A program made the translations under genes and the position numbers. The notes under the pieces were generated by a model that saw only the letters and a list, made by a program, of their open reading frames with translations, was not told the DNA's origin and did not search any database. Positions 2,311 to 46,472 of a DNA stretch of 63,557 bases are shown here, one piece after another. The DNA is taken from positions 1 to 63,557 of the IMG/VR virus record IMGVR_UViG_3300021791_000002, one strand, 5' to 3'. Source of the DNA: a virus. Its lineage: Duplodnaviria; Caudoviricetes. Positions within the stretch are counted from its first letter, which is position 1. Each line of letters opens with the position of its first letter.

Positions 2311-2311
2311 G

Positions 2312-2551
2312 ATGATGAGTGTAGTTGACGATGTCACCAACCTATTAAATGCAGTAGGACTACCTGTAGGAATCACAATAATTTTAATGTGGTTTATTAA
2401 GTATCAATTCGACAATTCAAGAAGTGAACGAGAGGAGGCGCGAGAGGACAGGCAAAAATTTGATCAAAGAATGATTGAGGGATTTACAGAGATCAAGCTT
2501 GCAGTAGAGCAACAAAACAGATTGATATCAGAATTTTTGCGATTGAAGTAA
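2312..2551 (+). CDS. Holin-like membrane protein
   Basis: One N-terminal TM helix (VGLPVGITIILMWFI) plus coiled coil; lies upstream of the endolysin. Confidence 0.5.
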   Translation: MMSVVDDVTNLLNAVGLPVGITIILMWFIKYQFDNSRSEREEAREDRQKFDQRMIEGFTEIKLAVEQQNRLISEFLRLK

Positions 2552-2808
2552 TGCCAAGAAAGTCGAGTGAAAATTTCAATAATTATTTACCGTTAATATT
2601 ATATTTTGTTCGTGCTGCTTTACCTTTCGCAGAATTATTTTTAATAGGGTGGATAATTTATTATGTTTTCAACACAGACGGGATTTCAAAAGAGATGACT
2701 AATATTCTGTCAGCTTGTGTCGGGGGACTACTCGTTAATTATACAAAGATGAGCGGTTTTATATTTTCCAAGGAGAGTGATCCATCAAACTCAAATTACA
2801 GAGGCTAA
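2551..2808 (+). CDS. Membrane protein, holin-like
   Basis: Two hydrophobic segments; lysis-cluster context; TAATG coupling. Confidence 0.45.
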   Translation: MPRKSSENFNNYLPLILYFVRAALPFAELFLIGWIIYYVFNTDGISKEMTNILSACVGGLLVNYTKMSGFIFSKESDPSNSNYRG

Positions 2809-2809
2809 T

Positions 2810-3001
2810 ATGATAGGAGTATTAGGAACAGTTGGACTTGCTGCTGCGAAGACGTTAGTTGTTAGTTTGCTGACGGAGAAAATGATTCTCAAACTGACAC
2901 TGACACTACTAGAGTGGGCAGTAGACAGGACAAGCAATGAAGTTGACAATCAGCTTGTTGGAATGATGAGAGAACAGCTTCGGAAGACAGGAGTCCTATG
3001 A
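2810..3001 (+). CDS. Small hydrophobic protein of the lysis cluster
   Basis: ATG at 2810 after GAGG; stop overlaps the endolysin start. Confidence 0.5.
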   Translation: MIGVLGTVGLAAAKTLVVSLLTEKMILKLTLTLLEWAVDRTSNEVDNQLVGMMREQLRKTGVL

Positions 3002-3471
3002 GGATTGCCCAAAACTTCACGCTTGAGGAGTTCACAAAATCTCAACAAGCAGAGAGGTTGGGTATAGATAATTCCCCTCAGAAGCCAGAGCATCTTGTAA
3101 ACTTAGTTTTATTAGCTCAGAACGTCCTTCAACCTATTAGAAACGCACACGGCCCGGTTATTATTTCTTCAGGATACAGGACGGTTCAAGTCAACAGGGC
3201 AATCGGAAGCAAATCTGACACTTCCCAACATTGCATAGGACAGGCAGCAGATTTTGAATGCATCGGAAGTATATCAAATTACGATTTAGCAGTTTGGATT
3301 CAAGAGTGTTTAGATTTTGATCAATTAATTCTTGAGTGTTACGATCCTAAAAAGGGGATGAATAGTGGTTGGATTCATTGCAGTTACAATTTAGAAAAAA
3401 ATAGATCAGAAAAACTAACAGCATCTTTTGAAAACGGTGAGATGAAGTATCAAAGGGGGCTAATAGGGTGA
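2998..3471 (+). CDS. Endolysin, peptidase M15A family
   Basis: NFTLEEF start, ISSGYR, SQHxxGQAAD and WIH Zn-peptidase motifs. Confidence 0.9.
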   Translation: MRIAQNFTLEEFTKSQQAERLGIDNSPQKPEHLVNLVLLAQNVLQPIRNAHGPVIISSGYRTVQVNRAIGSKSDTSQHCIGQAADFECIGSISNYDLAVWIQECLDFDQLILECYDPKKGMNSGWIHCSYNLEKNRSEKLTASFENGEMKYQRGLIG

Positions 3472-3477
3472 TGAGTC

Positions 3478-6400
3478 ATGCCAAAAAAGACATTAAAGGA
3501 TTTTTCAGGAGGATTAAACACTAGATTAAGCAAGAGTCACATTTCAGAAACAGAGGCGCAGGATTCTGTTGACATTGATTTAAGTGGAAACCGAATACAA
3601 CCTGCAAAGGGAATTGACGAAAGCATTATTGCAAGTGGAGATTATAAATTCAGAAGTAAGTGGATCACAGATGAGGAGGCAGTTTCTTTTTCAGAATACG
3701 GTGATTCAATTATCAAGAGTTATGAAAACAAGAAACCTCAATTTCAGTCTTTAAAAGAGGAAGGAGGAGTATCTGATTCTATTGATTTAGGTGTCCCGCC
3801 AACTCCTGCCCCACCAACTCCGGTATTACAAACCACCGGGACTGCTACCACAGCAGATAACGCATACGCTTATCACACTGTTTATACCGAAACAATAAAG
3901 AATTCCGGAGGCATAGCATCTGGCGCAGGAGGTGGAAATCCTCAAACTTTACTTCCGGGAACAGTAGAAGGGCAACATATTCATGTTGATTCTACTGGTG
4001 GGTTTTCATTTTTCAAGGAACCAAGTTCATCTGCGACCACTTACACTCCAAACTATTCTGAAAGCGGGACATTAGTCCGGTACAGTTCAGGATATTCTTT
4101 AACATTCAGTATTTCGATCACGCACTGGAACTCATCTGAAAACGAATTTAGGAGACCGTCTTATTTCTTTAAGGGAGATTATTTTGTAGGAGTTTCTGAC
4201 TCCGGGATCAGTAAGAAATTATTGACTGATTCTACTGCATCAGAGACAACACATGCCTTTACAAGTCCAACTATACAAGAGTATGTAGGAGATTCCTGTA
4301 CTGCTGACGCTCAGGACGGAATAGAGCAAGCATATACAACTGTTCATCGTACAACAGTCAGTTCAGATTCAGACGAAATTTTCGTCTCAAGGGTTCACCG
4401 AGGTCACGGGGGAAGTATAAGTGGGACAGGTTCTGTAATTTCAGGAACAAAAAACGGTGTTTGGAGAACTAACGCAGGATGCGTTCATATTGAAGGAGAA
4501 CCAAATCTTTCTAATAGTAACATCAAGAAAGTTACTTTACGAGAGGGGACGTGGTATGTGGTTTTGTGGTTTGACCCCGGATGGGTCAGGAAAAAGGAGT
4601 GGATACAGACTCACCCGTTGGGGTTAGGCGTAAAAGATTGGATATCACTCGCTCCTGATTGGCGCGGGAATAATTCGATAGGAGGTTATGGATGGGAATA
4701 TGTGTCAAGTTCTGCTTTTGAAGCCTCTTCGGGGGGGCGCACAGCAATGGGTTGGTTTTCCGACTTCACTGAAAGTGTTCATGACATATATGAGACGGGA
4801 TCTCAGACCTTCTGGAATTGGGCGAATCCATCTCAATCCGAAAATGCCTCCCCCGGAGCCACTAGCCCCACTGTTGTCTCTTACACCATAGACCCTCTTG
4901 CTTTGTGGTCTTGTCACAACCAAGCTGATCAGTGGGAAGTCCCTACAACTTTAGATGGTACTCATTTTTATTCAGAATTAGATGATTCTGGTGTGGGGAG
5001 TTTTGTGGGGTCAGCACATGATGGTACAGGACCGACAGATACTACAAACACAGGAATTTTCTTTGGAAATGATTGCAGTTCTATCAGTCAAATTTCAGGA
5101 AGCGAATATGTGGGAGCGTCTGAAAAAGGATTCGCCCCATATTATAATAACCAAGCACAAATTAAAGGAGGCGCATTATACATCCCGTGGGATACTACAG
5201 CATCAGTAAATGTTGGTCCGTTCCCGACTTACATTTTTGAGGTAGCAACTTCAAATAAGTTAGCACGGTCGAGTTTGAGAGGTATGTCAGCAAGAGTTTT
5301 CTCACAGAAAAAAGGTTCAGGGTCAGACGAAAGGACAGAATATTTTTTCAGGAGGAATGATCGTTTAGACGGGGGTGTTTATAATTTAAAAGAAGAATCA
5401 GCAGCAGGGAGATCAGGTGATTTAACAGTCTCGCCGGATTGGGAACCTCCATCAGGTTCTCCTGAAGTGTATGATTACGGATTAGGAGTATCTATACAGA
5501 AATTCCTTACAATTTACCATGATTATCACTCCGAAGAGAGACGCGGGAAAGGATTAAGATACCGTTGGCATCAACTAGAGCAAGCTCCGTTGTATAACGG
5601 AGGATCATATAAAAATCCTACGCAACAAACCCCACAGTATATTTTAGGAGACAAGGATTATGCTCTTAATACAATTCATATGAAAAATTTGAGCATTGAC
5701 AGCACAATCAATGCTTTATCTTATCCTGTAGCACAAAACAAATGTGCGGTAATTAACACTGTACACAAGTTAGCGTTTACTGAAACAGGTGCAACAACAA
5801 TTCATTGCACAGAAGGGGTTCCAGATTATAAGATTCAAGATCGAAGCACTACAACTGTTTCTGTAGAAAATGTAAATGAAACTTTACATGTTTCTTCATA
5901 TAACTGGGCATGTACTCCGTTGCATCAAATAAATTCTGCGAAGATGGCAAAAGTCTCTGGGTCACTGAAGAGGGCATCTTTACCTGCAGATAGAGAACGA
6001 CAAGCAGCAATGCACCCCCAGTTTGGACTCGCGTCATCTCCAACTTCTAAAGCAGAATCCTTGGGGACAGAATATGTTCCAGAATCTTATTTGCGAGGGT
6101 CATCAGAGTATGATCTCGCGTCTTCTAGACATATAAACCCAGACTCTAGTGCATCTTTAGTGACATCAGGGTGGTTGCCGTTTAAAGCAAAAACAACATA
6201 TCAAGTTCCAACAAATTCTCCTGTATCTGATCAGGGTGTCATTTTCCAGAGATCAGACAATTACGGGACTCCTTCCTCTTCTTATATCCCAGAATATAAA
6301 ATAGGTTTAGCAAATACGGAAGGATCAGATTTATCTTCACAACCGCAAATAGAGGCAACAGAAGACCATAGATTTTACGCTAATGATAACGGCGTTTTAA

Positions 6401-11626: not shown

Positions 11627-13543
11627 ATGTTAAACAAGAAAAAAGTAAAAAGTTACTTTGCAAACAACCCGTCAAATATCATTGAACAGGCAACGATAGG
11701 GTCTGGGAGTCCTAGTAATTCCATAAGTCCTCTTGGAGGGAGTTCGTTAAATGCCAACCAAAAGCTTTCTGGTCATATAACAGCAACTACTCCTATACAA
11801 GAAGTTGGTACAGATAACCCCACAGAAGAAGATTTGCACCCGCATGAACATGCTGAATTCGCTCCTGTTGGGCAAGCAGAGGCTAATAATATGCCGATGC
11901 AAATACGGGCACCAGATGGGTCTGTTGAAAAGTTGTCATACATAAACGAAGAGGAGGCAAGACTCTTGAAAGAACGAGGTGCTTCTGGAGTTCCGACACA
12001 ATACGGACCTAAAAGCTATGTAACGGGGACAATATCGAATGCGGCAATGCCTAGTTATGGACCTGATCCTGCCAACAGAGATCTTGCTACAAGGAATTTG
12101 GGGTACGATCATCAGGTATTAAATCAAGCAAAAATCAACCGTATGCGGGCATTGAATCAAATGATGGGATTGCGTGGCGGTTTTGCAGATCGTTCTGCAC
12201 GGGCATTTGGTCGGTCAGATGCGTCTTTTGCTGCTGGTGATGCCGATTATCAGAGGGCAAGACTTCTTTCAGATCGATCTTTGCAAGGAATAGGTCAGGA
12301 TCAGGCTTTTTACAGAGGGTTGGAAGGAGAAACAAGACAGTTGGGAGAACAATTAGAAGCTGATACAAGTATGTATCAAAGGCGACTTGATCAACTTCTT
12401 GAGGAAACAGGGCGCGACCCCGTAGCACTTCAACAAGCATTATCTGCTCAAAGGCAAGAAGATATAGGGAGGCAATCCGCTGGTCAAAGGTTGGCTATGG
12501 AGCGTACGATGGGCGCAAGAGGGGTTGATCCGACATCTATGAAAGCATTGACTGCTTTGGGTGGACTGGAAAGTAATGCTTTGGCGCAAACAAGACAAGC
12601 GTCCCGTGATTCTTTTGCAGACGCAAGGAATTTACAACAACAAAGATTAGGGCAACGAGCGCAATTATATGGTCAGCGTTATGGTGCCGGGGCAAATACT
12701 ATCGGTGTCCGCCAAAATTTGTTGCAGAATTTAAGAGCAGGTAGAGGGCAAGAACGTGCTTTTGACAGTGCGCTTTTGCAGCAGGGGATACAAGACAGGC
12801 TAAACCTTGCTGGATCAGAACGTCAATTTGGGATATCACAACAATCATTTGGGAATGTCGGTCTTGGGCAAATGATTGGATTGGACCAAGCAGCAATACA
12901 AGACGCAGTTTTCGATCAGAACCGTCAGGAGCAAAAACTACTTTCCGCTTGGCAAATTCAAGCTGGGATTGACGCATCAGAGGCACAAACTCAAGCAACA
13001 AAAGAAGCAGCAAATCAGCAAGCATCCGCGAATAAACAGGCTGGAATGATGCAAGCAATTGGGACAATTGCTATGGTTAAGGTGGCATTCACTTGTATCC
13101 CTGAAGGCACCGTAATTGATACGGGAGAGGAATCTAATGTTGGAATTCGTATTGAAGACCTCAAGCCGGGTGATGTTATTGCAGGATATTACGGCAATCT
13201 TGTGCAAGTATTACAGAAGCATGAATATCTTGAAGGTTTCTATAAGGGCGACAAAAACAGATTTTTGACAATTATTTTCAGTGACGGAGAGGAAGTAAAT
13301 CTTTGTGATACTCATAGAATCATGAATATACCAAGTGGGGAACTTAATATCGGAGATAATGTTGGAACCCGCACTGTTGTAGATATTGTGAGATACGGAG
13401 ATGTTACAAGAAGTTACGATTTACTCACTTCGGACAATAAGGGTTATAGAATTTCAGGGGTTCCTGTGAATTCTATGATTGAAGAGATGGCGCGAGTTGG
13501 ATTTGCTACTGAACTTGCAAACAATTTACGGAAGGCAGCATGA
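11627..13543 (+). CDS. Internal virion (ejection) protein with C-terminal Hint domain
   Basis: Q/A/G-rich helical body; C-terminal CIPEGT...CDTH...SYDL...VPVNS Hint signature. Confidence 0.7.
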   Translation: MLNKKKVKSYFANNPSNIIEQATIGSGSPSNSISPLGGSSLNANQKLSGHITATTPIQEVGTDNPTEEDLHPHEHAEFAPVGQAEANNMPMQIRAPDGSVEKLSYINEEEARLLKERGASGVPTQYGPKSYVTGTISNAAMPSYGPDPANRDLATRNLGYDHQVLNQAKINRMRALNQMMGLRGGFADRSARAFGRSDASFAAGDADYQRARLLSDRSLQGIGQDQAFYRGLEGETRQLGEQLEADTSMYQRRLDQLLEETGRDPVALQQALSAQRQEDIGRQSAGQRLAMERTMGARGVDPTSMKALTALGGLESNALAQTRQASRDSFADARNLQQQRLGQRAQLYGQRYGAGANTIGVRQNLLQNLRAGRGQERAFDSALLQQGIQDRLNLAGSERQFGISQQSFGNVGLGQMIGLDQAAIQDAVFDQNRQEQKLLSAWQIQAGIDASEAQTQATKEAANQQASANKQAGMMQAIGTIAMVKVAFTCIPEGTVIDTGEESNVGIRIEDLKPGDVIAGYYGNLVQVLQKHEYLEGFYKGDKNRFLTIIFSDGEEVNLCDTHRIMNIPSGELNIGDNVGTRTVVDIVRYGDVTRSYDLLTSDNKGYRISGVPVNSMIEEMARVGFATELANNLRKAA

Positions 13544-15738
13544 TGGCTATTAATTACGGATATGGTCTAGACCCGAATCAAGGTGCATTAGTTAATTCAC
13601 TGCTTGCAGCAGAGGATAAGAAGCGAAAGGCAGAAGAGATTAAAGCATTTGGAAAAGTGAATGCAGAGAAGACAAAAATAGATGCATTTAACAAGATGTT
13701 TAGTCAGCTAGCATCAGCAGGAGTCGGGGTAGCAAAAGAGCATATGAAGTCAGACTTGAACAGTTACACTTCTGATCATAATGCTGCTGTTGATCAAGCA
13801 AAGCACCAACGCAATCAATACCAAACAGGAACAGATGAGTATAATTTCTTCAATGAAAGAATTACTAATTTGAATAATGATTTCAGAGAGGATGTAAAAG
13901 CGTGGAAAGAATCAGGGTTTTTAAATCGTGACGGTTCGCTTTTAAGTGTCACAAAGGGAGAGACAGGAGGTGAGCGGACATTTACAGGTTTAGATGAGGG
14001 GCAACAGGGGATGTTGAAACACAGCAACAAGAGAATAAAAGAATTAAAAGATGAAAATATTGAATTAGAGAAAGGCATTCAATCTCGCAGGGATTCTTTA
14101 AAAAAAAGTTACGAAAACCCTTCTTCCACTATGGCTTCTAATCCAGATTTTTATACTGGTGGTGACCACATGAAAGAAATTCAGGAAAGGTGGGATTCCA
14201 AACCTGATCAGAACACAATCGCAGAAAACAGAGGCATGATTTCTAAACTGGAAAGGGGAGTTTCTGGATTGCAAGAAAAGGCACAAGGGGTTTTAGAGGG
14301 TTATGATTTTGACCCTGTCACAGGAAAGGAATTGAATCGTTCTTCGTTGAAGTTACATGAGCAAAGAAGATATAAGGAAGCACAACGTAGTAACACTTTG
14401 GAGGGGCAAGCCGCAGGTCTTTTAGTGAGATCAGGTATAACTCCTCCTGACAATCTTCTTCAAGGTTCTCCTTACGGGATGATGACTAAGGAACAACTTG
14501 AAGCAGTTATGATAAAAGGTATGGAGCCAGAGCTATTAAAACAGGCTCAATTCAGGATCAGAAACGGCATATCTTTTGACAAAGAAAATAAGGAACACCA
14601 GCAAATCGCTGATAGTTATGGAATGAATTTCGATCAACTTCAAAATATAACCAAACACAGTGCAGAAGCTATTCATTTAAATAGGCTGAATAAAGCCGGT
14701 ACTGATTATAACGCAATTGAAAAATACGGAAATGAGGCGATAAATAGTGGGTATGATTTTACAACTTTAACACCTGAACATATTCAGGGAAGAATTGATG
14801 ACGCAAAGTCGGCAACACGAAACAGTTTTTACGCTAAGGCAATGAGCATTGCTAATACTGGCAATCTTCAGTTTCAAAACTCTTGGTATGCCTCTAATGA
14901 GAGACAAATAAATAAGTATATTGCTGACGGAGTATTATCTAAAGATTTCAAAGCAGCATCTTCTAGCTATTTTTCAGGGAAAGCCAAGAATACAAGTCAA
15001 AGACTGCATTTGAATAACATGACCACGTCATACAATTTAGTAGGAAAAGCAGTTGAAATTTCTGCTGAAACTCAGGAAGACATCCCAGAAGAAGTGAAAC
15101 AAATCGCAGCAAGTATAGGGATCAACGATATTAATACTTTAGTCCAAAATGAAAAAGCTAAGAACAATTTTGAACGAAGTAGAAAGGAAGTGACTGCACA
15201 AAATGCTCGTCTTACTTTGGCAAGGAGTCTTGAAAAAGAAATATATGAAGCTCAGTATGGTACTGGTCAGGGTGTCACAAGTGACGGTAGGGGTGGACTT
15301 GTTATGTATAATAAAGGAGGTTTGATAGATATCGACAAGACAGAAAAAAACTTACTGACAAAAACTAACAGCACAACAGGGGATCTTTGGACTAAAGAAG
15401 ATTTAAAAATATCCAAAGAAAGTTGGAAGCGGCATAATGCATTTCAAACTTCTATTTTACAAGCCAAGCAACACGGTGTTGATGTTAATGAACTCCAAGC
15501 AACTGACGAAGGTGGGGCATTGTTAAAGTCAACAGACTGGTCTCAAGACACTGCTGTAGGAACAGTTCAAGTGAGGCGGGGGGATACCTTATCAAAAATA
15601 GCAAAAAGACATGATACAACAGTTGCAGAGTTACAGAGGTTAAATCCTCAAATAGAAAATAAAGACAAAATTGAAACTGGTCAACGTGTGGTCGTCCCTA
15701 CTAAAAGAAGGAAATACAGAGAATTTCAACGGAACTAA
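13540..15738 (+). CDS. Internal virion (ejection) protein with C-terminal LysM domain
   Basis: VRRGDTLSKIAKRHDTTVAELQRLNPQI LysM motif; coiled-coil body; ejection-gene position. Confidence 0.75.
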   Translation: MMAINYGYGLDPNQGALVNSLLAAEDKKRKAEEIKAFGKVNAEKTKIDAFNKMFSQLASAGVGVAKEHMKSDLNSYTSDHNAAVDQAKHQRNQYQTGTDEYNFFNERITNLNNDFREDVKAWKESGFLNRDGSLLSVTKGETGGERTFTGLDEGQQGMLKHSNKRIKELKDENIELEKGIQSRRDSLKKSYENPSSTMASNPDFYTGGDHMKEIQERWDSKPDQNTIAENRGMISKLERGVSGLQEKAQGVLEGYDFDPVTGKELNRSSLKLHEQRRYKEAQRSNTLEGQAAGLLVRSGITPPDNLLQGSPYGMMTKEQLEAVMIKGMEPELLKQAQFRIRNGISFDKENKEHQQIADSYGMNFDQLQNITKHSAEAIHLNRLNKAGTDYNAIEKYGNEAINSGYDFTTLTPEHIQGRIDDAKSATRNSFYAKAMSIANTGNLQFQNSWYASNERQINKYIADGVLSKDFKAASSSYFSGKAKNTSQRLHLNNMTTSYNLVGKAVEISAETQEDIPEEVKQIAASIGINDINTLVQNEKAKNNFERSRKEVTAQNARLTLARSLEKEIYEAQYGTGQGVTSDGRGGLVMYNKGGLIDIDKTEKNLLTKTNSTTGDLWTKEDLKISKESWKRHNAFQTSILQAKQHGVDVNELQATDEGGALLKSTDWSQDTAVGTVQVRRGDTLSKIAKRHDTTVAELQRLNPQIENKDKIETGQRVVVPTKRRKYREFQRN

Positions 15739-15740
15739 AA

Positions 15741-18700
15741 ATGTCACAACTTAACTTCTGGCAACATCTTCAGTTTCAGGTAAAGTACGCTCCTGTTTCT
15801 GAAACAGATGATGATTTGGAAAAGTGGAAAAAACGATCACAAGTAATAGATAACGAAGTCGAAAAATCAGGTATAAGCAATCCGACTTTTGTTAAAATTG
15901 CCAAAGATCGTTTGTTAGGTCAACGTCCTCCAACTTACTCCGCACTAGAAAACATAGCAGAAGATTTGCCGACAGGTTTTGCAAGAGGTACTTACGGGTC
16001 TTTCACCAAGTCAGTTGGTGCCGGATTAAGTGCCCCACGGGCATCTGTTATGGACGATCTTCAGCCTTTTTTTGATAAAGGAATACAAGATGAAGTTACC
16101 GGGGAGATGCGCGAATACACGCAAGAAGAGAAGGAAGAATTCGCAACAAAGTATTTAAGCAATGAACTGCCACACCCGTTCATCCCGACATTTTTGTCAC
16201 CCAAAAGAAAGGACATTTACGACAGACCTGAAAAACCTGAGTGGTTGCAAGAGTTAGGGACTAATCTTTATGAACACGGGAAAGAGTTCAGAGAACGCTG
16301 GCAAGGAGAAGGACGTGCTGCAACCAACGAAGAATACATCAGAAAAGCTTATTCACCTAGTGGTGATATAGTAGAGAAATTGTTTGCAAAAGCTATCCAG
16401 AGAGGGTGGGTAAACAGTCCGTCAGAATTAGCACGGTCAACTGGAGAATCAGTCGCATCTCTTGGTGCTGGGGTTACTGCTGGAACAGCAGGGTTTCTTG
16501 CGGGCGGCCCTAGAGGTGCTGCAGCAGGTTTTATGGCAGGAGCGACTATGCAAGCATCACTGCAAGTTGCTGATGGTGTTGGAGAGTCAGTTGAGAATGA
16601 TGAGGAAATAAAAAAGTTGGTTGAGCAAACAGTTTTACAAAAATATACCACAGAACAATTAGCAAATGAAGATATTAGAGATAAGGTAAAAGAAGAAACA
16701 GATGACAAGATGAATGACTTAGGTAAATTCTGGACAAGTGAAACAATTCAAAGGAGATTAGGATCACCAGCAGCATTGATTGATTTAATAGGCGCATATC
16801 CTTTAGGCAACATAGTTGCACGGGCAATATTAGATACAGGGGCAGAAGCGGGTTCTGAAGCGTACGATACCGCACTAGAGGAAACAATAAAACTTAATGC
16901 AAAAGAAGATTTGCTTCAGGAGTTGGGGGTTCCTCAATCAGAAATTGATGAAGTCTTAAATTATGAAACTATTGCAGGACTTCGTATAAATGACTGGATG
17001 AAAGTAGTTCGTGGCGGGACTGCTGGTGCAATCTTAGGCGCAGGAACGACAGCACCTACAATTGCAATAGAAGAGGCAGGTAAATTAGCAGTTAATACAT
17101 TAAAGAAGTCTTCTGATCCACGGATTGATCCAGACAGGACTGCCAGAAAAACGCTTCGTGATCAGGAGATGATTGACACAAAAGAAGAAGCGTACGTTGA
17201 ACAAGTCAGGTTACAGGGGTTAGATGCTCAAGTTAAGGGGTTAGACGCAGAGGCAAAAGCAGAGACTGCCAGATTAAACGCTGAAAGAGAAAAGGAGAAG
17301 ACTGAGCAGGAAAGAATCAAAGCAAGGTTAAAAGGGTACCTAGAAGGTGATCCAAAAGAACAACTTGCTCTTGACCAGCAAGTCGAAACCACTTCTGATC
17401 AGGTGATGCCTGACCTCCCAGATATGCCTGATGAGTTTGGACCAAGTTCCACAGCAGAAGACATACGAGTCTCATCAGAATTAACTCCTGAAGAAGTACG
17501 CGAAGAAGAAGATAGATGGGAAAAGGCACTTAAATTTTATGATGATTTTTACATGGCTGAAGGAGGAGTAGTTGGTCTTAGTGAACCCTACAAAAATGAT
17601 CCTCTTCCCGGATACAAGCATTATAATTTAACAGCAGTAGGAGAAAATATAGGGAGAGTTATTCTTCGTAAGACTGAAGATAATTTCGATGTTTTGCATC
17701 TTGAGATTTCTCCGGAGTGGAGGGGGAAAGGATTAGGGTTTCGGTGGCTGGAGCAGGAAATTACAAAGGCAAAGAGTCAGGGAATAGACTCAACTCTTCA
17801 GTTGACTCATAACCCTAACGTGATTAAGTGGGCACAAGAAAAAGGAGGGGTTTTAGAAGGAGTTAACGAGGAACAAGGAACAGTTAGTACGATTACATTT
17901 CCTGTTAAAGATGAAACTACACAAGTAGACCCTAGATTAGCCCCACAGCCTGAAACTGCACCTGATGAGCGAGCGCAACTAGAGCAATCTATCCTTGATG
18001 ATTTCGCATCGTACGATGCAGAGTACAGAGAGACGGGTGTCGCTTCTCAAGTTTCAGAAGACGAAGCGGGGAACACGACTTTAAGGAGTGCTTCATCTGC
18101 ACAGGACAGGAGCGACAAGAATCTTGAAGCAATCCCTAGTCCTATTTCACAAAACGAATCTCGAGATTCTGTCCACAGAAACACCAAGGCGACTACAGAA
18201 GCAGTTGTTAAATTATTCGCCAGAAGGTTCCCGAAATTAGGATTAAAACTTGGAGAAAACGTATTAATCCTAACAGATAATGAGTATAGAAGATATTTGG
18301 ATAGTCGAGCAGTTGAACAAGGAAGGCTTGATGACATTACTGTTCAGGGTGTAGAGGATTTTGCACAAGAACTTTCCCGAGCGTCAGATTATGTCCCCGG
18401 GACAGAGGGGCATTATGAGAAAGACACCGGGCGTGTTGTTTTAAATGTAGACAACATTAGTGCTGCAGGAGAGCAACGAAATGCATCTGATCGATTAGTT
18501 GAAGTTTTGTGGCATGAAGCATTAGGACACAAGGGATTAATTGAAGGATTGAATGATGCATCTACAGATGGCAAGGGATATAATCGTTTCATCAATGCTT
18601 TCTTGGACTCTTATCAGGACGACCCTGTTTTCAATGCATATGTATCAGAAGTCGGTTTGGAAGACAACAGATTTGGTGCTGCAGAGGAGTTTATTGTCCA

Positions 18701-21700
18701 GAAATTCAGGGAAGGAAATGTTTTTAATTTAGATGAAGAAGGAAACTTATATGAAAGTATAGACACTGGAGAAAACAGATTTTCTCAAGGGTCTTTAGAG
18801 AATAAATTCTTAGACTCTTTAGTTGCATCGTTTAAAGCAGCAATTGGAAGAGATGGGGTCAACAAGGGGCGTTTAGATGACCGACAAATACGTCATATCA
18901 TGTTGGCATTAAAGCTAAAGAATATGGGTCAAAATGTATTAGGAAGGCGACCTGTTATTTCATTTGAGGATCAGGACGATTTTATTTTGGAAAGTGACCC
19001 GTCAGATCAAACAGTAACAAAGGAAACGACTGACGCTGATGGGAACACAATATTACATTCGTTAGACAGCAAGTTGCCAGAAGGGTATCGCGACATAAAG
19101 AAATTTCGTCACGCCACAGGAAAAGAGTGGAGATGGGAATTCAATCTACCTCCAACAAAGGGGAGAAAAAAAGACAGAACATTTCAGATACGAGCCTTCC
19201 GCGCAAAGGCAACTAGTGATACTGTTGGAGGGGCATCTACGTTTACTGCATTCGATGATAAAACAGGAGTAGCAACAGAAAGCAAACCTTTGTATGAGGT
19301 TGATCCTGAATTTAAAAGTAAAATTGATGCTGCAAATATAGACCCTAACAATGAAAATGCATATGTATTTGATTTTGGTAAGCTAAATCCGCGTTCAGGG
19401 AAGATTTCGTATTTACGCACAAAGGAGGGAAGCGAAAAAGAAATAATGTCCCAAGTTGTTTCATTCTTGAAAGAATTCTTGGGAGACGTGCGCCCCCAAC
19501 AACTAATATATACAGGAAAAGAAGAAACAGAAGATTCTGTAGAAGGAAAAGTTCCTGCAATTAATCGGTTGTATACGAGAATTAATCAACGGATGGCAGA
19601 CGAATTTAGTTATCCCCAAAATGTAGAGCATCTTTATAACGGAGATTTAGAGGGAATATTTATCTTACAAGACGCTCCTGCTGAAGCAGAGGGTCAAGCA
19701 GCGCAGGAATCTGTTCCCCCTACTCCTGAGGTTAAACGGGTTTTAGACCTTTCAAGACAAGCAGAGGAGAATTTATTAAGGTCTATAGGACCAACAGTTC
19801 AGGAACAAGAAGCAATTTTAAGGTCTGCTGCGCGGACCCCAGAATTCAGAAAGTTTTTCCGAGGGAATAAATTAACTGCTGATTTGATGGGAGGTAATCC
19901 TAACGAGCCTTTGATGGTATATCATGGTGCTAAAGGTGGATTTGAAGGAGTAGGATTTAAAGAGAAAGATCGCTCAAGAGTAGAACCTCCTTTAAGTGAT
20001 GAGCGAGGCAGTGAGCATTTGGGGGCGCGAGAACGAAGGGAACCGTTTATTTATGTAACAACTTCAAAAAGGCTAGCAAGCGGTTATGGAGGCAGAACGA
20101 AGAGAGGAGTAGTATTGCCGCTTTATGCAAGAATAAGAAAACCTTTTGTATTCACAGCAAAAGCTTATAACGATTGGGCCGAACAAAAATTCGGAGTCCG
20201 TCCTATGGATGAGGAGGATGTAGCCTATTCTAATGCCTTTCTTAGTCCCCCTAGTAAACAGGACAGGAGATATCCACATGACGTAATTTATAGAATAGCA
20301 CAACATATGTGGAGAGATGCTTACTTTTTTCAAGGCATATTGGATCAGGGTTATGATGGGGCTATTTTTGAAGGATCATCATCTCAGGGAAATGATCATA
20401 TTGCACTTGTATTGCCTCAAAACTTAAAATCGCAGTGGAATGTTGAACCTGAAGAGGGATTGGATTTATTGCGGTCTGCTCCACAGAAGTTTAAACGCAA
20501 TTGGTATGGAGATGAAGGGCTTTATGATCCAAGCTACGTCAGCGAAGTTAAGACTGAAGAGTTAAAGGGGGACACAGGAGAGGTTTTAGGAACAAAAGAA
20601 GTTCCTCAGTTTGAAAGCGGCATTGATTTCACAATTCCAGATGAAAGTGAAGAAGGTTTACTTTATAGAGGAATGAGTGATGGAGAATACCAAGAATTTG
20701 TCAAAACAGGAGAAGTTAAATCAGCAGGATCATATAACATCGGAGAACAGGCAGGACTCACCTATTATTCAACAAGCATACAATCGGCAGAAGCTTATGC
20801 GGACAGGTTTGCTCCTTCACAATTTAAGGCATCTTTTGAAAAACCAGCGTACGTTGTCGCAATAAATGCCCCTGATACAAAGTATACAAGACATGTCGAA
20901 GGTGTTGGAGAACATGAAGTTGGAGTATCAATACCAATACCGTCAAAAGATATTGTTGCAATTTACAAAGGGGAAGTAATTGAGCATCGCCCCGGAACAG
21001 AGGGGGAGGGTATTAGTATTGCTCCGTCATCAAAACTTTCTTGGAAGAAAATCTTTGATCAACGATCACAAAAGCCACTTGGAAGAGAACCAGTAGAGGA
21101 GGGTGCGCTTGATTTGCCTGATGCCCCTCCGGGTTTCTGGGAGAAGGCAGATTCAGATTACGATTCTCTTTTTACGGAAGAGAAAGCTTCTCAGCGATTG
21201 AAATATGTGCATGATTTAATCAATAAAACATTAAGTGACGGAGGGGATACATTTGCTAATGAAATCGGAGAAAACAACACTATTGATCACGAAAATTACA
21301 TTGCGGATTTAAGAGTATTCTCTTCCGAACCTGTCACAGGTTCAGACAGATTAACAGGAGAAGAAAAGAAAATAAATCCTGCGACAGCACTTTACATGCA
21401 AACCAAAACCCCCAAATTCAGGAAATTTTACCGAGGCAGTCGTTTAGTTAACACGGACAAAAAATCCCCGAATTACAATAAGCCTATAATGTTGTTCCAC
21501 GGAACATTTGAGTGGGAGGGGAAAGGGTTTAAAAACAAATTCAGAGGACGTAGCACTCAAGGTCTTGCGGGGGCTGTGGGAACCGGATTAAATACAGGAG
21601 GTATTCTAGGACACGGATTTTATTTTACCTCTAATTTAAACGTGGCAGAAAGTTATGCTACTACTGATTGGAACCCTAGTGGTGAAGGTGGCTTTATTAT

Positions 21701-27700: not shown

Positions 27701-30700
27701 ATTTGATCCTAGTTTTATTTTGAGTGGAAGTAGAAAGGAATTAAGACTAAATGATTTAAAAAGAGATTCTCGTATCTCTGTTTATAAATTTGCAGCACAA
27801 CAAATTGGGAGAGATTATGGGTACAAATTGTTCTTGCGAAGAAAAAATTGGGACGCGGGTTTGATTGTACTGCAAAGAAAAGAGTTAACAGTTCCTAAAT
27901 TAAGAAATATTGTTGAAGAGTATAACCATAAAACAGGGGAAAATGTTTCTTGGGATTCTCTACGAAATTGGCAACGATCCTTTTCAGAAATAACTGAATC
28001 ATATCTGGACTCCGAATATGCAAATGACCGAGAATTACCTCCTTATAATGTTCTGAAGCTGGGGTTGTCAAAGGAAGCAAAAAAGCAACTTACGAAGTTG
28101 CATGACGCAATCCCGGAATTTATGCGTGGGACATACAAAAAGGAAATCACAAATTTTGTAATCAATGATATTGCCGGGAAAAAGGCCAAAGAACCAACAG
28201 GAAGACTTCAAAACACAATATTAAGATCAAGAGAGAATAAGCCACTCCACTCATCTGAATTTCCTTCTGTGGATCGTACGATGCGGTCATTAAAGGCAAA
28301 ATCAGGAGAACCGGAAACTGCGTTTGGCAGATGGGCTACAAATGTAATGAATTATTTGAAGGGGAAACATCTTGGAAATCTAGAAGAAGAAGATAAGTAT
28401 TTAATTGGAAGATATCGGGCATTAGGAAAAGTCGCAGAAATGACCGAGATGGGCGAGAGATTTTACAAAGCATTCAAGGACGCAAGATACACCAAGGAGA
28501 TTTATGAGTTCTTAACCACAAAGGGTGCTGATCCAGCAATGATTCCAGATGATACTGAAAGAAAGAATGCTATAGACGCAAAAGAGAAAATAATAAGAAT
28601 CGGAGAAGACTTGGCAGATTTAGGGATGCTCCCGCAATCGACATTAACAAAGTTGAAGGGGCAATATCTCCCCAGAATCTATTTAACTCACTTATTAAAG
28701 GATGAAACTGTAAAAGCCTTGCAGGGGGGAGGAAGACCGTCAACTTCACAACTAGACTACTTAAAACACCGGAGAGATATCCCGAAAGCAGTACGGGAAC
28801 TCTTGTTACGAGAAATAAAAGATCCGGATTACCTTGTTGGTCGCGCACTAATGATTCCCGGGCGAGACATTGCATTAATGAATTGGTATAGCGACCTCGC
28901 ACAAAACCCAAAGTGGGCATACCAAGAAAGTGTAGTAGAGTTCGATACACTGAAAGAGGTTCAAAACATAATCAGAAATATGCCGGGGGTCGATTCAGAT
29001 GCGGTAATGAAACTCTTTGAGTTGGACCCGTCAATTGAAGATCGTAGGAATTCATTAAAAGAAAGGATAAGATTTGTTCAATCCCAAATTACCGGGACTA
29101 AAGACAAGGATTTAAAGGAAGTATTACGAAGGGATTTAGCTAATCTAAAAGATTCTTACAAACTTTTAACGCCAAGAAAAGTTTCCGGAGAGTATCTCGT
29201 AAATGAAGCTGCACGAATCAGGAAGGATATCCTGCCTACGCTTGACGGGCAAGCCCGGGACATTGGGAGCAAGTTAACCCAGCGTATGGACACCGTTGGC
29301 GAAGAGCATAAAAAAGAGGACTACGATCAGAGATATTGGCGTAAAATGCCAAACACAAAGAGATTTGGTCGCCTTAGAGGTATGATAGTGCGGCGAGAAA
29401 TATATGACGATATTGTTGGTTCACAAAAAATAGTTCAAAACGAAAACCCGGATTTAATTGACGAGGTTTTTGGAGAGGGAGGATACGTTGAACGTGCCGG
29501 GCAACTTTGGAAGTGGAGTAAAGTTGCAGGGAATTTCCCGCCCTCACACGTCAGAAACTTTACATCAAATATGATATTGATGCATCTGGGGGGAGTCCCC
29601 GGTGCCTCATTGCCCGGATTGCTTGTGAAAGCAGTACGGGAACTTTCTACGGACGGGGAACACTACAGGATCGCAAAGCGTTATGGATTAAAGGGGTCAA
29701 GCTTTAGCGCAAACGAGTTGGGGAAAATCGAAAAGGAATTTACTGAATTAAAAAGAAGGCTTGATAAGGGCAAGGTGAGTTGGTTGCCGGGGACTTTAGG
29801 AGCATTGAGAAGGGGGTTTGAAGGGGTTAAAGAAGCAACCTCTAAGACTTACGAATTGATGGAAGCACTTGGCAAAACAATGATGATAATTGATGGGGTT
29901 AATCGCCTTAAATTATCTGAAGAAGATGCTGTAATCCGCGCCCAAAAATATCTTTTTGATTATTCGTTGCTACCGGGGTGGGCTAGAAAAGTAAGACGTG
30001 CAGCACTTGGCGCACCGTTTTTGACATTCTATTATAAAACGCTTCCGGTGTTGATTGAGACAATGAGATCACGTCCGTGGAAGCTTGCACCGTATTTCCT
30101 TCTTGGGTCTGGAATGCAATACGCAGCAAAATCCGCATTGGATTTAGATGATGACGAGTATGAAGCATTAAAAAAGTCACTTCCTGAGTGGTTGAGGAAC
30201 AAGCCGCATGTTTATGTATTGCCTTGGAAAGACGAACATGGTCGGGTGCAGTGGGTTGACGGTAGTTACTTGATGCCTTGGGGGATGTTCTCTGCTTTAC
30301 TGCAGGAGATGTCTCCTGTTAACCTAAGCAGGTTGATTGATATTACTCCTGACGTTGAAACAAAAACACCTAGCGTTAAAAACATTTTTGGAACATTAGG
30401 CTTGATGACTGGTCCTGTTCCCTCTACAATCAGTGCCACTTTAACTGGGGTGGACCCGTTTACTAGGCGACCTATTTGGAATGAGCGAGATAGTGCAGGA
30501 GATCAGGTTTTGAGTGCCGGGTTGTATGCCTATAATTTGTCAATGCCAACACTATGGGCAGGTTTACCGGATTTAATGTTGCATTCTGATCAGCAACGAC
30601 TGCAAGGTGGAATCAGGAAGTTGTGGGGTTCTGCTAGGGGTGAATTAAATAACAGGGGGTTACCCAAAGATACAATTAAACAATCATGGTTGAGGTTCGG

Positions 30701-30947: not shown

Positions 30948-31442
30948 TTGTGTATCCGCGCATTATTTATTTTTACGGCAATCCTTGTCGTCAGTTGCGC
31001 TACAGTAGGGAATGCCGTCAGAAATTTAATTGACCCACGGGAGGTGGATTGCCTCGCAAAAAATCTGTATTTTGAGGCTCGACAAGAAAGCACTGCTGGT
31101 AAGATAGCAGTTGGGTTTGTTGTTTTTAATAGGAAATACTCTAAGCTATTTCCTGATACAGTATGTGAGGTTATTTATCAGGGGAGGCACAATGCAAGAG
31201 GAATCCCTTATCTTAATAGGTGTCAGTTTAGTTGGTATTGCGATGGCAGGAGTGACGATCCTCTTAATATTGATTCTTTCAGGGATTTAACAAAACTGAG
31301 CGAGTGGTTATTGTTTACTGAACGGTGGATGCCGGATATCACAGACGGCGCAACATATTATCATGCGTTATATGTTACTCCAAAGTGGAGTTTTGAAAAA
31401 AAACGTGTAATGAGAATAGATAATCACATTTTCTACAAATAA
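30948..31442 (+). CDS. Cell wall hydrolase, SleB-like (Hydrolase_2)
   Basis: CLAKNLYFEAR.E, FPDTVCEVIYQ, CQFSW, GATYYHA, IDNHIFY; N-terminal signal/lipobox-like VVSC. Confidence 0.9.
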   Translation: MCIRALFIFTAILVVSCATVGNAVRNLIDPREVDCLAKNLYFEARQESTAGKIAVGFVVFNRKYSKLFPDTVCEVIYQGRHNARGIPYLNRCQFSWYCDGRSDDPLNIDSFRDLTKLSEWLLFTERWMPDITDGATYYHALYVTPKWSFEKKRVMRIDNHIFYK

Positions 31443-40328: not shown

Positions 40329-40553
40329 TCATTTTGGGGCAGACCCGTGAAGATCGTGGAATTTAAGAGCATCCCTGATCTTTGATAAAGCATCGTTAAA
40401 GTCCTCCTCGCTCCAACAGGCATCTAACCCGTCAGCGTTGGGTATAGGCACATATGCAATGGCTCCCGCTTGGGCGACTGTCAGGACAATCTTTAACTCG
40501 TCATCTCTTAATTCATACCACTCTTTCTTCATGAATCTCTCCGGGTTGAACAA
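40329..40553 (-). CDS. Hypothetical protein
   Basis: Coupled to the recombinase gene; start probably at the MKKEW ATG. Confidence 0.5.
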   Translation of the reverse strand: MFNPERFMKKEWYELRDDELKIVLTVAQAGAIAYVPIPNADGLDACWSEEDFNDALSKIRDALKFHDLHGSAPK

Positions 40554-41268
40554 AATTTAAAAATCGGCGAATCTGACATGCAGTGAACTCCTTGCCCCTG
40601 CTGTTGACTAACCCCTGCGAAAAAGCTGAACTCGAAATACCCCTTAATGATAGTTCGGGGTTGTTCGCCTTGATTCCCTGTATCGTACGAATCATATCAG
40701 GGTTGAACTCATGATAACCCTTTGCACCTCCGCATTTCCCCTCACCGTGTTTGTTTAATTGACGCTTTAATCCGCAAGCCTTGCGTCTCCCAGATTGTAA
40801 ACGCAATGTGATCATGTTGCGCTCAAGATCAGAAACAGCAGCAAGGACCATCCGAATGAACTTCCGGGTCGGATCAGTCGCATCGTTGTTTAGAAATAAA
40901 TCAGGTGCGTTGACGGGGACGATATCTAATCCTTCTAACTTGAGCATGTTGCGTCCCAACTCGGTGATGATTACATCGCGTGAAAATCTGGAAATATCCT
41001 CTACCAGTATGTAATCAACGTCATTGTCCTGACAGTAATGTATTAATGATATGAATGCCGGACGCTTTGCCAGATCAGTAGTCCCGCTGACCCCAGCATC
41101 GTAAAATGTAACCCAACTTTCGTTTCTGCCAGAACCCTCTGCTAGTAGCTCGATTCCAGATTCTTCGGCGTACGATACACACTTTGCAATCTGCCTGTCA
41201 TCGGAATCCTTGTCTTCGCCAACATTGACTTGAGTTGAAGTGCGTATGTATATCACTGCTTTTTTCAT
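40513..41268 (-). CDS. Serine recombinase, resolvase family
   Basis: YIRTST catalytic Ser, DAGVSGT, RPAF, VEDISRFSR, LERNMITLRLQSGR. Confidence 0.9.
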   Translation of the reverse strand: MKKAVIYIRTSTQVNVGEDKDSDDRQIAKCVSYAEESGIELLAEGSGRNESWVTFYDAGVSGTTDLAKRPAFISLIHYCQDNDVDYILVEDISRFSRDVIITELGRNMLKLEGLDIVPVNAPDLFLNNDATDPTRKFIRMVLAAVSDLERNMITLRLQSGRRKACGLKRQLNKHGEGKCGGAKGYHEFNPDMIRTIQGIKANNPELSLRGISSSAFSQGLVNSRGKEFTACQIRRFLNFVQPGEIHEERVV

Positions 41269-43116: not shown

Positions 43117-43434
43117 CTAGCCGTTAGCTAGACGGCGTTTCGCGTCTTGCTTTAAAGAAGTATTTACGAATATACTTAGGTTAACTGCATCAGCGTTACT
43201 TGCATCGTACGTTGCAAACTTGTGATATGATGCAACGATATCTAACATCGCCAGTATCACGTTTTGTTGATTTGTTCGATGCGTCTGATCATGAAGATAA
43301 TCTAATACCGCACGATTCATTGCGTTGTTGATTTGTGGATTCCTTCCCAATCGTTCAACAATTTCTTTTGCTTCTTTTGATAGCATGTCTCGTTCAATCA
43401 GTGATCGGATTGCCTCTTCTTGTATACAGGTCAA
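43117..43434 (-). CDS. Hypothetical protein
   Basis: Coupled to the helicase stop. Confidence 0.5.
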   Translation of the reverse strand: MTCIQEEAIRSLIERDMLSKEAKEIVERLGRNPQINNAMNRAVLDYLHDQTHRTNQQNVILAMLDIVASYHKFATYDASNADAVNLSIFVNTSLKQDAKRRLANG

Positions 43435-45071
43435 ACTTTTTCTCCCTTGAATTTTAGACTTTTGATTTCTAGAAATCGTTGGTCTTTACTTGTTCCGACT
43501 TGAACCATTAGTGGTTTTCTTAGTTCGCCGATTCTTTTGATTGCGTCCTTTGAACTTTTGGGACTCGGTAATACTCCGTAATGTTTTGTCCACCACTTTT
43601 TGCATTTGTTCCTCGCCCAAGTGCTAGGGTGATTAAAGGGCATCCAGTTTGAGACTTCTTGTTTATTGTCATCGTCATCTTGTATAGTGTACACGGCCTT
43701 TAGAGATCGCTTACCTGACGCGATGTTTCTGTACTCGGAGTAGACTACCCTGATAACTTCAAACCAAGCAGGGACGCTTAGAATCGATAGTGCGGATGCT
43801 TTGCTTTTAAGCTTTGATTGGGGAACAGGAAACGGTTGTCCGCATTCGATGCAAATTCTTGCTTGAATCATGTTTGGAAATCCGCAATTCGGGCAATCCT
43901 TTGTCGGCATCTTTTTCGGACTTTCCCCATCTTGCCCTTCTGCTCTTACTAGCGGCAAATCAATCGGACCATGACGACTGATGTTTTGCCCGAAGTCTAA
44001 AATAACTACATCTTGTTTTTGTGGATGAGTTCGTAGTCCTCGCCCAACCATCTGTACATACAGACCTGTAGATTTAGTCGGTCGCAGCAGTGCAACAAGG
44101 TCAATGTCCTTAACATCAAAACCTTCAGTCAGACAATTGACGTTTGTCAGTACTTTGAATTTTCCACTCCTAAAATCTGATACAACCTGTTCGCGGTCTG
44201 TTGGTTTCATTTTACTGTGAATCGTTTCTGCTGAAATCGCGTGTACTTCCCGTAGTAATTGTGCGGTGTCCTCGGCTTGTTTAATAGATGCAGTGAAAAC
44301 AATCCACTTCTCCCTCGTTGTTTTGTATTGTGCAAGTTCATTTACTATTTTTCCCAATTGTGGGTGCATCGTACGCTCAATGTCAGCAGGGACGTATTCT
44401 CCGCCTTGTATTTTTGTTTTTCCGAAATTTGTTTTGGTTGATGCCTTTACTGAAGTCGGCGCACATAAGAAGCCACCGTTAATTAGATCAAGAATCGGGA
44501 CGTTGTGTGCTAGTTCGGAAAACATTTTGCCAAGACCGTAAACTTTACCTGTTCCCATCCGATACGGAGTTGCAGACAATCCGACTATTTTTGGTGCATC
44601 CTTAAATACTCCTTCTCTCCAACCTTGGTCGAACAAGAAACTCTTATACATTGTTTCTGAATCTGTAGGTATCCGGTGCGCCTCATCAACGATGATCAGG
44701 TCAAATTTTCCAACCTTCCCTCCGGCTTTATTCCCGGAGTTTGTTTTCTTGTACACGCTTTGGATGTTCGCACAAACTACTTGTGCATCACCCTGCTTTT
44801 TTCGCAGACTCGCAGAGTATATCCCAACCTCATTATCGATGATTTCAGATAGAGTTTCATGGTTCTGACGTACAAGTTCACCAATGTGTGCGAGTATTAT
44901 AACCCGTGCGTCCGGGTTCTTTATAAGCCAAGCTTTCGCTAGGTATCCTGCAATAATAGTCTTGCCGCCCCCCGTGGGAACAGAGATCACAGGGTTCACT
45001 CCCTCTCTTTGCATTGCAGACCAGCAAGCAGTCAATGCTTCTCTCTGGTGATTGTAGGGTATGAATTTCAT
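43431..45071 (-). CDS. SF2 DEAH-box helicase (RadD/UvsW-like) with Zn ribbon
   Basis: PTGGGKT, DEAH, SATP, LTEGFD, QMVGRGLR, CPNC/CIEC. Confidence 0.92.
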   Translation of the reverse strand: MKFIPYNHQREALTACWSAMQREGVNPVISVPTGGGKTIIAGYLAKAWLIKNPDARVIILAHIGELVRQNHETLSEIIDNEVGIYSASLRKKQGDAQVVCANIQSVYKKTNSGNKAGGKVGKFDLIIVDEAHRIPTDSETMYKSFLFDQGWREGVFKDAPKIVGLSATPYRMGTGKVYGLGKMFSELAHNVPILDLINGGFLCAPTSVKASTKTNFGKTKIQGGEYVPADIERTMHPQLGKIVNELAQYKTTREKWIVFTASIKQAEDTAQLLREVHAISAETIHSKMKPTDREQVVSDFRSGKFKVLTNVNCLTEGFDVKDIDLVALLRPTKSTGLYVQMVGRGLRTHPQKQDVVILDFGQNISRHGPIDLPLVRAEGQDGESPKKMPTKDCPNCGFPNMIQARICIECGQPFPVPQSKLKSKASALSILSVPAWFEVIRVVYSEYRNIASGKRSLKAVYTIQDDDDNKQEVSNWMPFNHPSTWARNKCKKWWTKHYGVLPSPKSSKDAIKRIGELRKPLMVQVGTSKDQRFLEIKSLKFKGEKV

Positions 45072-46329: not shown

Positions 46330-46386
46330 GGTTTTCCCTGAAAGTTTGATTCGGTTGAACGCTAGCGGAATTGCTAGCGTTCTTCT

Positions 46387-46472
46387 AGTATACACGGTCC
46401 TAATGATATGTCAACGAATTAATACGGAAAAAATTGTATCTTTTTGTAACATAGCCATAATGTCATGAAATT
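46387..46472 (-). promoter_or_regulatory. Early sigma70-like promoter with conserved upstream box
   Basis: TTGACA-N16-TATACT; upstream sequence shared with 48257-48343; 5' hairpin ACGCTAGC/GCTAGCGT at 46359-46380. Confidence 0.7.

Follow-up and report, generated by a model that had tools for sequence, protein, structure and literature searches.

In the DNA analyzed here (the window: all 63,557 bases of IMG/VR virus record IMGVR_UViG_3300021791_000002, Caudoviricetes), one open reading frame (ORF) of an uncultured, short-tailed phage encodes a polyvalent protein of 5066 amino acids (aa), P0001, in which a short peptide recurs at joints between modules. This extended motif, phi-L-(R>K,Q,H)-S-phi-R, is real, on the basis of its enrichment in P0001 and relatives, its conservation and its position, and many joints in the P0001 lineage share a consensus of 9-11 residues, (D/E)-x-x-(polar)-phi-L-(R/K/Q/H)-S-phi-R-R. 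We tentatively propose that the joint peptide is a candidate protease recognition site, which may be read by the protein's own zincin-like metallopeptidase (MPTase) module to free effectors in a polyprotein-like manner, a reading that we consider quite possible rather than probable. Self-processing of polyvalent proteins by built-in zincin-like MPTases is already published as a hypothesis (Iyer, Burroughs, Anand, de Souza and Aravind, 2017; PMC5512222), and the new element is a specific candidate site code at the joints of P0001.

A recurrent peptide at the joints of P0001

A preliminary description of this DNA had reported nine copies of [T/L/I/A]-L-R-S in the 5066-aa protein, and both the count and the coordinates proved exact (L codons at 18081, 19776, 19818, 20469, 22197, 22302, 26772, 27336 and 28221, with T, L, I or A always preceding). 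Closely spaced copies were found as described, at aa 1346/1360 and 2153/2162/2188. The reported absence of LRS from the N-terminal ~780 and C-terminal ~900 residues (aa 1-780 and 4164-5066) also holds, but these termini are uninformative because only ~0.8 copies would be expected there. The variants listed in that description exist, although its list was incomplete: LES occurs five times (25650 had been missed), LHS three times, LKS twice and LDS eight times. As forms of the tag, the E and D variants are unsupported: LES at aa 1083 and 3447 is not kept at the aligned position in relatives, and most LDS copies lie inside conserved domain sequence; LHS 4169, LRS 3678 and TLQS 2279 are likewise not kept. 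A T4-like L-x-E reading of the LES copies was therefore rejected. In addition, the codons differ across the nine LRS copies (TTA/TTG/CTT, AGG/CGG/CGT/AGA and AGT/TCT/TCA/TCG for the three residues), which indicates selection on the peptide and rules out a DNA-level repeat as the cause of the copies.

The pattern [ILVTA]LRS, defined on P0001 and then applied to its full-length relatives P0002 (3894 aa) and P0003 (4038 aa), occurs 9 times in P0001 against 0.72 expected, 5 times in P0003 against 0.45 and 3 times in P0002 against 0.46. BLAST blocks between P0001 and these two relatives show 25-36% identity in the N-terminal and middle regions and 52-62% in the C-terminal domain. A widened class, [ILVTA]L[RKQH]S, gave 12 copies against 1.94 in P0001, 8 against 1.22 in P0002 and 6 against 1.14 in P0003. 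In the phage's other 39 ORFs (13,557 aa) the motif was found twice against 4.49 expected (Fisher p 8e-6). No motif enrichment was observed in five more distant family members, LRS in more distant relatives has no special context, and pooling over 117 relatives revealed no prominent family-wide punctuation tripeptide (FSR 43 vs 24.4, LRS 86 vs 58.6).

The residues around the sites are also patterned. In a flank logo of 30 sites from four proteins, positions that played no part in site selection have preferences of their own: an acidic residue at -5 in 14 sites and at -2 in 11, no hydrophobic residue at -2 in any, an aliphatic residue at +3 in 20, and Arg at +4 and +5 in 12 and 13, respectively. 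In P0001, P0002 and P0003 alike, the 14 residues upstream of the sites contain fewer hydrophobic and more polar residues than average. The earlier impression that the motifs follow acidic linkers is thus borne out at -5 and -2, but not in overall composition, the acidic fraction upstream of the sites in P0001 being 0.18 vs 0.16.

Sites were placed in register by MAFFT alignments of four motif-bearing lineages, P0001/P0007, P0002, P0003 and L003/P0157, of which L003 is a single locus found among metagenome contigs (Table 1). Six joints could be aligned, each in up to four lineages. In their L and S columns, 46 of 46 pairwise comparisons gave identity, a count that covers sites picked for carrying the motif and hence overstates independence; for the flanks (±25 aa) the figure is 296 of 1127 (26%). 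As the preliminary description had noted, motifs stand at domain edges around the ADP-ribosyltransferase (ART) modules: ILRS 1360 and LLRS 1577 flank the first ART-PolyVal domain, and LLRS 2153 follows the second. In particular, VLKS-LQRTPEFRKFF of P0002 aligns with ILRS-AARTPEFRKFF of P0001, exactly where the BLAST block between the two proteins starts (aa 1359). The LLRS after the first ART domain is paralogous to the site after the second; the after-ART joint reads LLRS in P0001 and LLQS in P0002, with no aligned site seen or tested in P0003 and L003, and some 25-45 aa beyond it stand VLKS in P0002, ILRS in P0003 and LLKS in L003.

Comparison of the homologous blocks revealed the same association from another side. 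Blocks start or end at aa 1359/1579, 3865-3866 and 4161-4190, and 6 of 10 distinct internal block edges fall within 40 aa of a site, where 18.5% of the sequence lies that near (p 0.004). Moreover, ILRSIQRPG of P0003, the counterpart of junction E, is followed at once by ~140 inserted aa. Differences in modules between relatives, which the preliminary description had proposed to look for at the motif, are visible at several of these joints. The same tag opens unrelated modules, namely the MPTase, module 2, ART, the module of aa 3867-4161 and the C-terminal domain, so common descent of the domains cannot explain it.

A putative peptidase in the chain and the meaning of the joints

The HEALGH motif (18513-18530) lies between EDEAGNTTLRS (18057-18089) and TDADGNTILHS (19029-19061). 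The earlier claim of a zincin motif bracketed by near-duplicate linkers thus stands in its positions, with the correction that WHEALGH is HExxxH and not the canonical HExxH. Jackhmmer found the module in 62 of 161 sequences, and its 63 copies comprise 50 with HExxxH, 7 with HExxH, 2 with both and 4 with neither. Only four columns are invariant in a 34-row alignment, H86, E87, H91 and E144, the last a Glu 53 residues after the final His. An AlphaFold2 (AF2) model on this alignment (mean predicted local distance difference test score (pLDDT) 73, core 80-93; predicted template modeling score 0.66) runs from an N-terminal helix through three strands to a long helix that carries HEALGH (76-101) and a later helix with E144 (138-151), an order that fits a zincin-like core and displays the HEXXXH-plus-third-ligand-Glu signature. 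The top Foldseek matches in the PDB belonged to two zincin families, MATCAP (E 0.13, prob 0.96, TM 0.28) and anthrax lethal factor (E 0.27-1). A fold search against BFVD gave one match at E ≤ 0.001, and its top rows were pieces of giant phage proteins, with polyvalent, MuF-C and 'zincin protease' among their names; in the ESM Atlas no matching cluster had a name, and 18% of the members of one cluster gave a lead to LPD23. It is plausible that the HEALGH module, whose predicted fold is zincin-like, is an MPTase. A set of HEXXXH MPTases has been described in polyvalent proteins, with autoprocessing proposed (PMC5512222), and the P0001 module fits that clade. All four motif-bearing lineages have the MPTase, and the two best-conserved sites, junctions A and B, lie on either side of it.

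In the mechanism that we propose, the joints would serve as protease recognition sites as in viral polyproteins, their likeliest reader would be the built-in MPTase module, and cuts at the joints would release the enzymes as separate effectors. If the MPTase is a gluzincin, the invariant Leu may sit in the hydrophobic S1' pocket, and the cut would then fall before Leu. Judging from the surrounding internal-virion, LysM and cell-wall-hydrolase genes and from the precedent of phi24B gp47, P0001 is probably carried inside the capsid and enters the host together with the DNA. We infer packaging and ejection, cleavage, the identity of the protease and the scissile bond alike. An extension of this proposal, unlikely as it may be, is that each polyvalent lineage has a private 'cleavage code', a junction peptide co-evolving with the specificity of its built-in MPTase, which here would be phi-L-R-S-phi-R-R with Leu as P1' of an HExxGH gluzincin. 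If so, cleavage of the ejected 5066-aa chain in the host would yield about eight defined effectors, phages could exchange whole modules at the tag and still have them processed, and the ends of each released enzyme would be exactly predictable from the sites in Table 1.

Genes for polyvalent proteins rank with the largest and most common phage 'weapon' genes, and since 2017 the cleavage of these proteins, and its sites, have been a matter of hypothesis. A conserved junction peptide together with an adjacent candidate protease makes the self-processing hypothesis experimentally simple, and the sites suggest where constructs for the separate expression of each uncharacterized module could begin and end. 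Should the built-in peptidase read the tag, the two would form a compact protease-and-site pair with possible use as a tool.

Several results weigh against self-cleavage, both those given here and those told below with the alternatives that they favor. Matches of the zincin fold in the PDB are weak (0 of 261 at E ≤ 0.001), and no Pfam peptidase model matches the module in P0001, four A1 members, P0004, P0076, P0079 or P0100; it has no PHROG match at E ≤ 0.01 and no sequence relative in the PDB. Relatives with the same MPTase module family (e.g., P0004, P0005, P0008 and P0009) show no phi-L-x-S enrichment, so the motif does not simply travel with the module family. Furthermore, 4 of 10 module edges (~aa 590, 1771, 1889 and 2432) lack the motif, and the ~1400 aa from 2279 to 3678 hold no conserved site. 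The expectation of one domain per inter-motif segment fails in places, since aa 1577-2153 hold at least two domains and aa 2279-3678 are without a conserved site. The widened motif class was defined after P0002 and P0003 had been seen, making the motif classes partly post hoc. Finally, the motif is carried by four lineages of one clade only, with several sites homologous or paralogous, which implies few independent events.

A serious rival, although we hold it to be somewhat unlikely, is that the motif marks a conserved joint that is never cut, a docking or capping element for packing in the capsid, for unfolded threading through portal and tail, or for binding a chaperone or host factor, with the protein acting as a single chain or delivered whole. 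N4 virion RNA polymerase, ArdC and TraC1 all carry MPTase domains and yet are packaged or transferred uncut (PMC5512222). Junctions B and D run straight into conserved module sequence (SLGRNV..RRAHNW and SVRPxVxLVxLN), possibly its first fold element, and a weak, low-confidence AF2 model puts helices or strands over some sites. This model, of aa 760-1600 on a 5-row alignment, has a mean pLDDT of 44 and an unfolded ART domain and is useless for placing sites in linkers; in it, poor throughout as it is, pLDDT is low at junction A and 50-77 in module 2. In the model of the MPTase, the last 26 residues (aa 1060-1085), just upstream of junction B, fall below 50. What speaks against an uncut joint is that the same tag precedes unrelated folds, that its flanks are polar and poorly conserved, and that the double and triple copies (1346/1360; 2153/2162/2188) seem more typical of redundant cleavage sites.

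A cleavage signal for some other protease, whether a host protease acting after ejection, an SprT-like zincin encoded in the window (45127-46395, -) or a head protease in the missing ~15% of the genome, appears rather improbable. The source record is linear, 63,557 bases long and estimated to be 85% complete, so a protease gene could be missing; the SprT-like ORF is a second zincin-like candidate (Pfam E 1.2e-9); a basic residue ahead of Ser, and Arg-Arg behind it, could make a site for a serine protease; and relatives sharing the MPTase module family lack the motif. However, no prohead protease was detected among the ORFs scanned of this ~85% complete record, and the head module (portal, scaffold-like ORF and capsid protein) is contiguous without a protease gene. 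The capsid protein has a single, internal copy of the junction motif (DLLKS) and none N-terminally, and the ORF between the portal and capsid genes, scaffold-like as a weak lead, has none. The SprT-like ORF stands beside a helicase gene in the replication block, away from the virion genes, whereas the MPTase accompanies the motif in all four lineages, bracketed by the best-conserved sites.

With regard to chance, LRS occurs 9 times in P0001 against 2.28 expected and none of 2000 shuffles reaches 9, but some equally extreme tripeptide is present in 151 of 200 shuffles, and, when 73 family proteins of at least 2500 aa are ordered by their best tripeptide p-value, P0001 comes 25th. Taken by itself, the number of LRS tripeptides thus does not exceed chance; what does is the extended motif, with its recurrence in two relatives, its conservation and its placement. 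That the motif has no function at all, the pattern being chance plus shared ancestry in which a linker of the ancestor was copied along with the ART module and passed on to close relatives, would agree with this count, with the paralogous sites after the two ART domains, with the restriction to one clade and with the lack of conservation of sites 3678, 2279 and the LES copies, but is very unlikely given that the extended motif stands at 6-12 times expectation in three proteins 25-36% identical over the N-terminal and middle blocks bearing most sites, that L and S never vary between flanks of 26% identity, that the sites precede non-homologous modules, and that the flank logo has preferences at positions not used for picking sites.

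Module architecture, relatives and gene context

P0001 is a phage polyvalent protein in which conserved N- and C-terminal domains bracket a variable string of modules (Table 1). This string comprises the HExxxH zincin-like MPTase, two ART-PolyVal domains, a third ART-like module, a weak GNAT-like stretch and several modules without assigned function. Unrelated biochemical activities are thus joined in one chain, and the chain is encoded by a virus record with terminase, portal, capsid and tail genes, both of them features of polyvalent proteins, which are encoded by phages, plasmids or conjugative elements (Iyer et al., 2017).

Table 1. Modules and junction sites of P0001 in the window, with the support for each
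Feature	Position	Strand	Evidence and counterparts in relatives
Giant polyvalent protein gene (P0001), 5066 aa	15741..30941	+	Single open frame
N-terminal domain, ~560 aa, no LRS	15741..17420	+	Conserved in P0002, P0003, L003 protein; phmmer/BLAST blocks 1-577/601
Weak GNAT-like stretch, aa 633-697	17637..17831	+	Pfam Acetyltransf_1 E 6.5e-4, 20.4 bits vs cut-off 20.7
Junction A, TLRS, aa 780-783, before MPTase	18078..18089	+	ILRS in P0002 and P0003; TLSS in L003 and P0157
Putative zincin-like MPTase module, aa 840-1075	18258..18965	+	HEALGH 18513-18530, AAEEF 18678-18692
Junction B, ILHS, aa 1104-1107, after MPTase	19050..19061	+	VLRS in P0002 and P0003; MLRS in L003
Module 2, aa ~1120-1310	19098..19670	+	Conserved in P0002, P0003, L003
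Double junction, LLRS aa 1345-1348 and ILRS aa 1359-1362, before ART1	19773..19826	+	VLKS in P0002; no aligned site seen or tested in P0003, L003
ART-PolyVal domain 1 (ART1), aa 1389-1565	19905..20435	+	Pfam PF18760 E 3.3e-9, 38.1 bits vs cut-off 31.2
Junction LLRS, aa 1576-1579, after ART1	20466..20477	+	BLAST block vs P0002 ends at aa 1579
Third ART-like module, aa ~1590-1771	20508..21053	+	YRG / STS / HEVG pattern; related to Pag-Yong1 protein
ART-PolyVal domain 2 (ART2), aa 1914-2143	21480..22169	+	Pfam PF18760 E 6.1e-12, 46.9 bits vs cut-off 31.2
Junction cluster, LLRS 2152-2155, TLKS 2161-2164, LLRS 2187-2190, after ART2	22194..22310	+	Alignment with relatives
ALRS, aa 3677-3680, unsupported copy	26769..26780	+	Aligned position in P0007 without motif; P0007 FLRS ~25 aa downstream
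Junction D, ILRS, aa 3865-3868, before module 3867-4161	27333..27344	+	ILRS in P0007; ILQS in P0002 and P0003; TLRS in L003; BLAST blocks start at aa 3865/3866
Module aa 3867-4161	27339..28223	+	Bounded by junctions D and E in all relatives; phmmer matches P0007 520-814, P0002 2692-2970, P0003 2696-2985
Junction E, ILRS, aa 4160-4163, after module 3867-4161, before C-terminal domain	28218..28229	+	ILRS, TLRS and ILRS in relatives, with TLRS in P0002 and ILRS in P0003; no aligned site seen or tested in L003
Conserved C-terminal domain, ~900 aa	28251..30938	+	'Chassis' common to giant phage proteins of a very large family

EDIRVSS (17457-17477, aa 573-579) stands where the conserved N-terminal domain ends (block edges 577/601), an edge without phi-L-x-S. 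The GNAT-like stretch is absent from the relatives and has no homologue among the family proteins searched. The module of aa 1590-1771 is 36% identical to part of a 'large polyvalent protein' of Planktothrix phage Pag-Yong1, and its counterpart in Synechococcus phage MinM2 is annotated RelA/SpoT; its YRG / STS / HEVG pattern is presumably a candidate ADP-ribosyltransferase signature of the R-S-E type. The Pag-Yong1 protein lacks phi-L-x-S punctuation: its 2772 aa contain [ILVTAM]L[RKQHSA]S once. EEGALDLPDA (21096-21125, aa 1786-1795), at the edge without motif that follows the module of aa 1590-1771, resembles a decayed EEGLDLLRSA (aa 1571-1580). PETLES, followed by A or V, occurs twice (24558-24575 and 25608-25625) within the 1400 aa for which the sequences searched include no relatives, and may be a local variant of the junction tag or chance. 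The C-terminal domain has neither a Pfam match nor a sequence relative in the PDB; 2471 cluster representatives match it at E ≤ 0.001, 629 of them at E ≤ 1e-30, and the best 150 of the 2471 are 275 to 5074 aa long.

Further members of the motif-bearing clade, a rare one, were found neither in the IMG/VR scans nor in GTDB genomes. Among phage records, megablast gave no match and tblastn 1 and 3 distant ones, and word-indexed protein searches returned 6, 3 and 1 proteins, P0001 itself included. Many distant relatives (P0017, P0080, P0038, P0126, P0140 and others) have P-x-F-S-R or F-Y-S-Q within ~100 aa after the MPTase module, a peptide that may either open the next conserved domain or serve as the junction tag of a different lineage.

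The window also encodes small and large terminase, portal, a scaffold-like ORF, major capsid protein, an SU10-type adaptor, tail fibers, an M15 endolysin, a 1877-aa internal virion protein, a LysM protein, a cell-wall hydrolase and a replication block. The P0001 gene sits in the virion/tail block, between the LysM protein gene (13540-15738) upstream and the cell-wall hydrolase gene (30948-31442) downstream. In the LysM virion protein (732 aa, +), DEGGALLKS at aa 657-664, ~13 residues before the LysM domain (aa 677-720), is the same tag (aa 661) at a domain edge of a neighboring gene. The SprT-like ORF encodes 422 aa with a weak Peptidase_M91 match in addition, and adjoins the helicase gene at 43431-45071 (PHROG 'DNA helicase'). 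An ORF at 40513-41268 (-) is serine recombinase/invertase-like (PHROG integrase / DNA invertase) in a genome that otherwise looks lytic, and ORFs are open at both record ends, for an RCC1-repeat protein (2-1525, +) and a tail-fiber-like protein (62202-63557, +).

Comparison with known systems

Viral polyproteins, such as those processed by picornavirus 3C or flavivirus NS3, are cut at conserved junction motifs by a protease in the same chain. P0001 resembles them in having a short conserved peptide at domain joints, a candidate protease in the chain flanked by sites, and redundant neighboring sites. They rely on a Cys or Ser protease, whereas P0001, a structural or ejection protein of a DNA phage, would rely on a putative metallopeptidase-like module, and not every joint of P0001 carries the motif. 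In T4 head maturation, the prohead protease gp21 cuts internal proteins after L/I-x-E. The likeness lies in injected internal proteins freed at a short Leu-containing motif; unlike T4, the P0001 phage has no detected prohead protease, its scaffold-like ORF and capsid N-terminus lack the motif, and LES is not conserved.

Another parallel is gp47 of phi24B, a 2811-aa large polyvalent protein of a podophage with a MuF-C metallopeptidase domain, which proteomics has found in virions and which has been proposed to be an ejection protein whose peptidase, its authors suggest, degrades peptidoglycan (bioRxiv 10.64898/2026.04.10.717836). In the part of that preprint covered here, neither processing nor a junction motif is reported. 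With the polyvalent proteins as a class (Iyer et al., 2017; PMC5512222) P0001 shares the joining of unrelated enzyme domains in one giant phage protein, here ART-PolyVal twice, an MPTase of the HEXXXH variant and a GNAT-like stretch; the role proposed for the class is that of an early effector delivered with the DNA, with MPTase autoprocessing of the chain hypothesized. The main text of that paper, supplements aside, gives neither a motif for cleavage sites nor one for linkers (the word 'linker' occurs 0 times and 'cleavage' 3 times), and with the same limit we found no such motif for polyvalent proteins described in the literature. Against this background, P0001 is distinguished by an MPTase module that matches no Pfam model and by a defined junction peptide.

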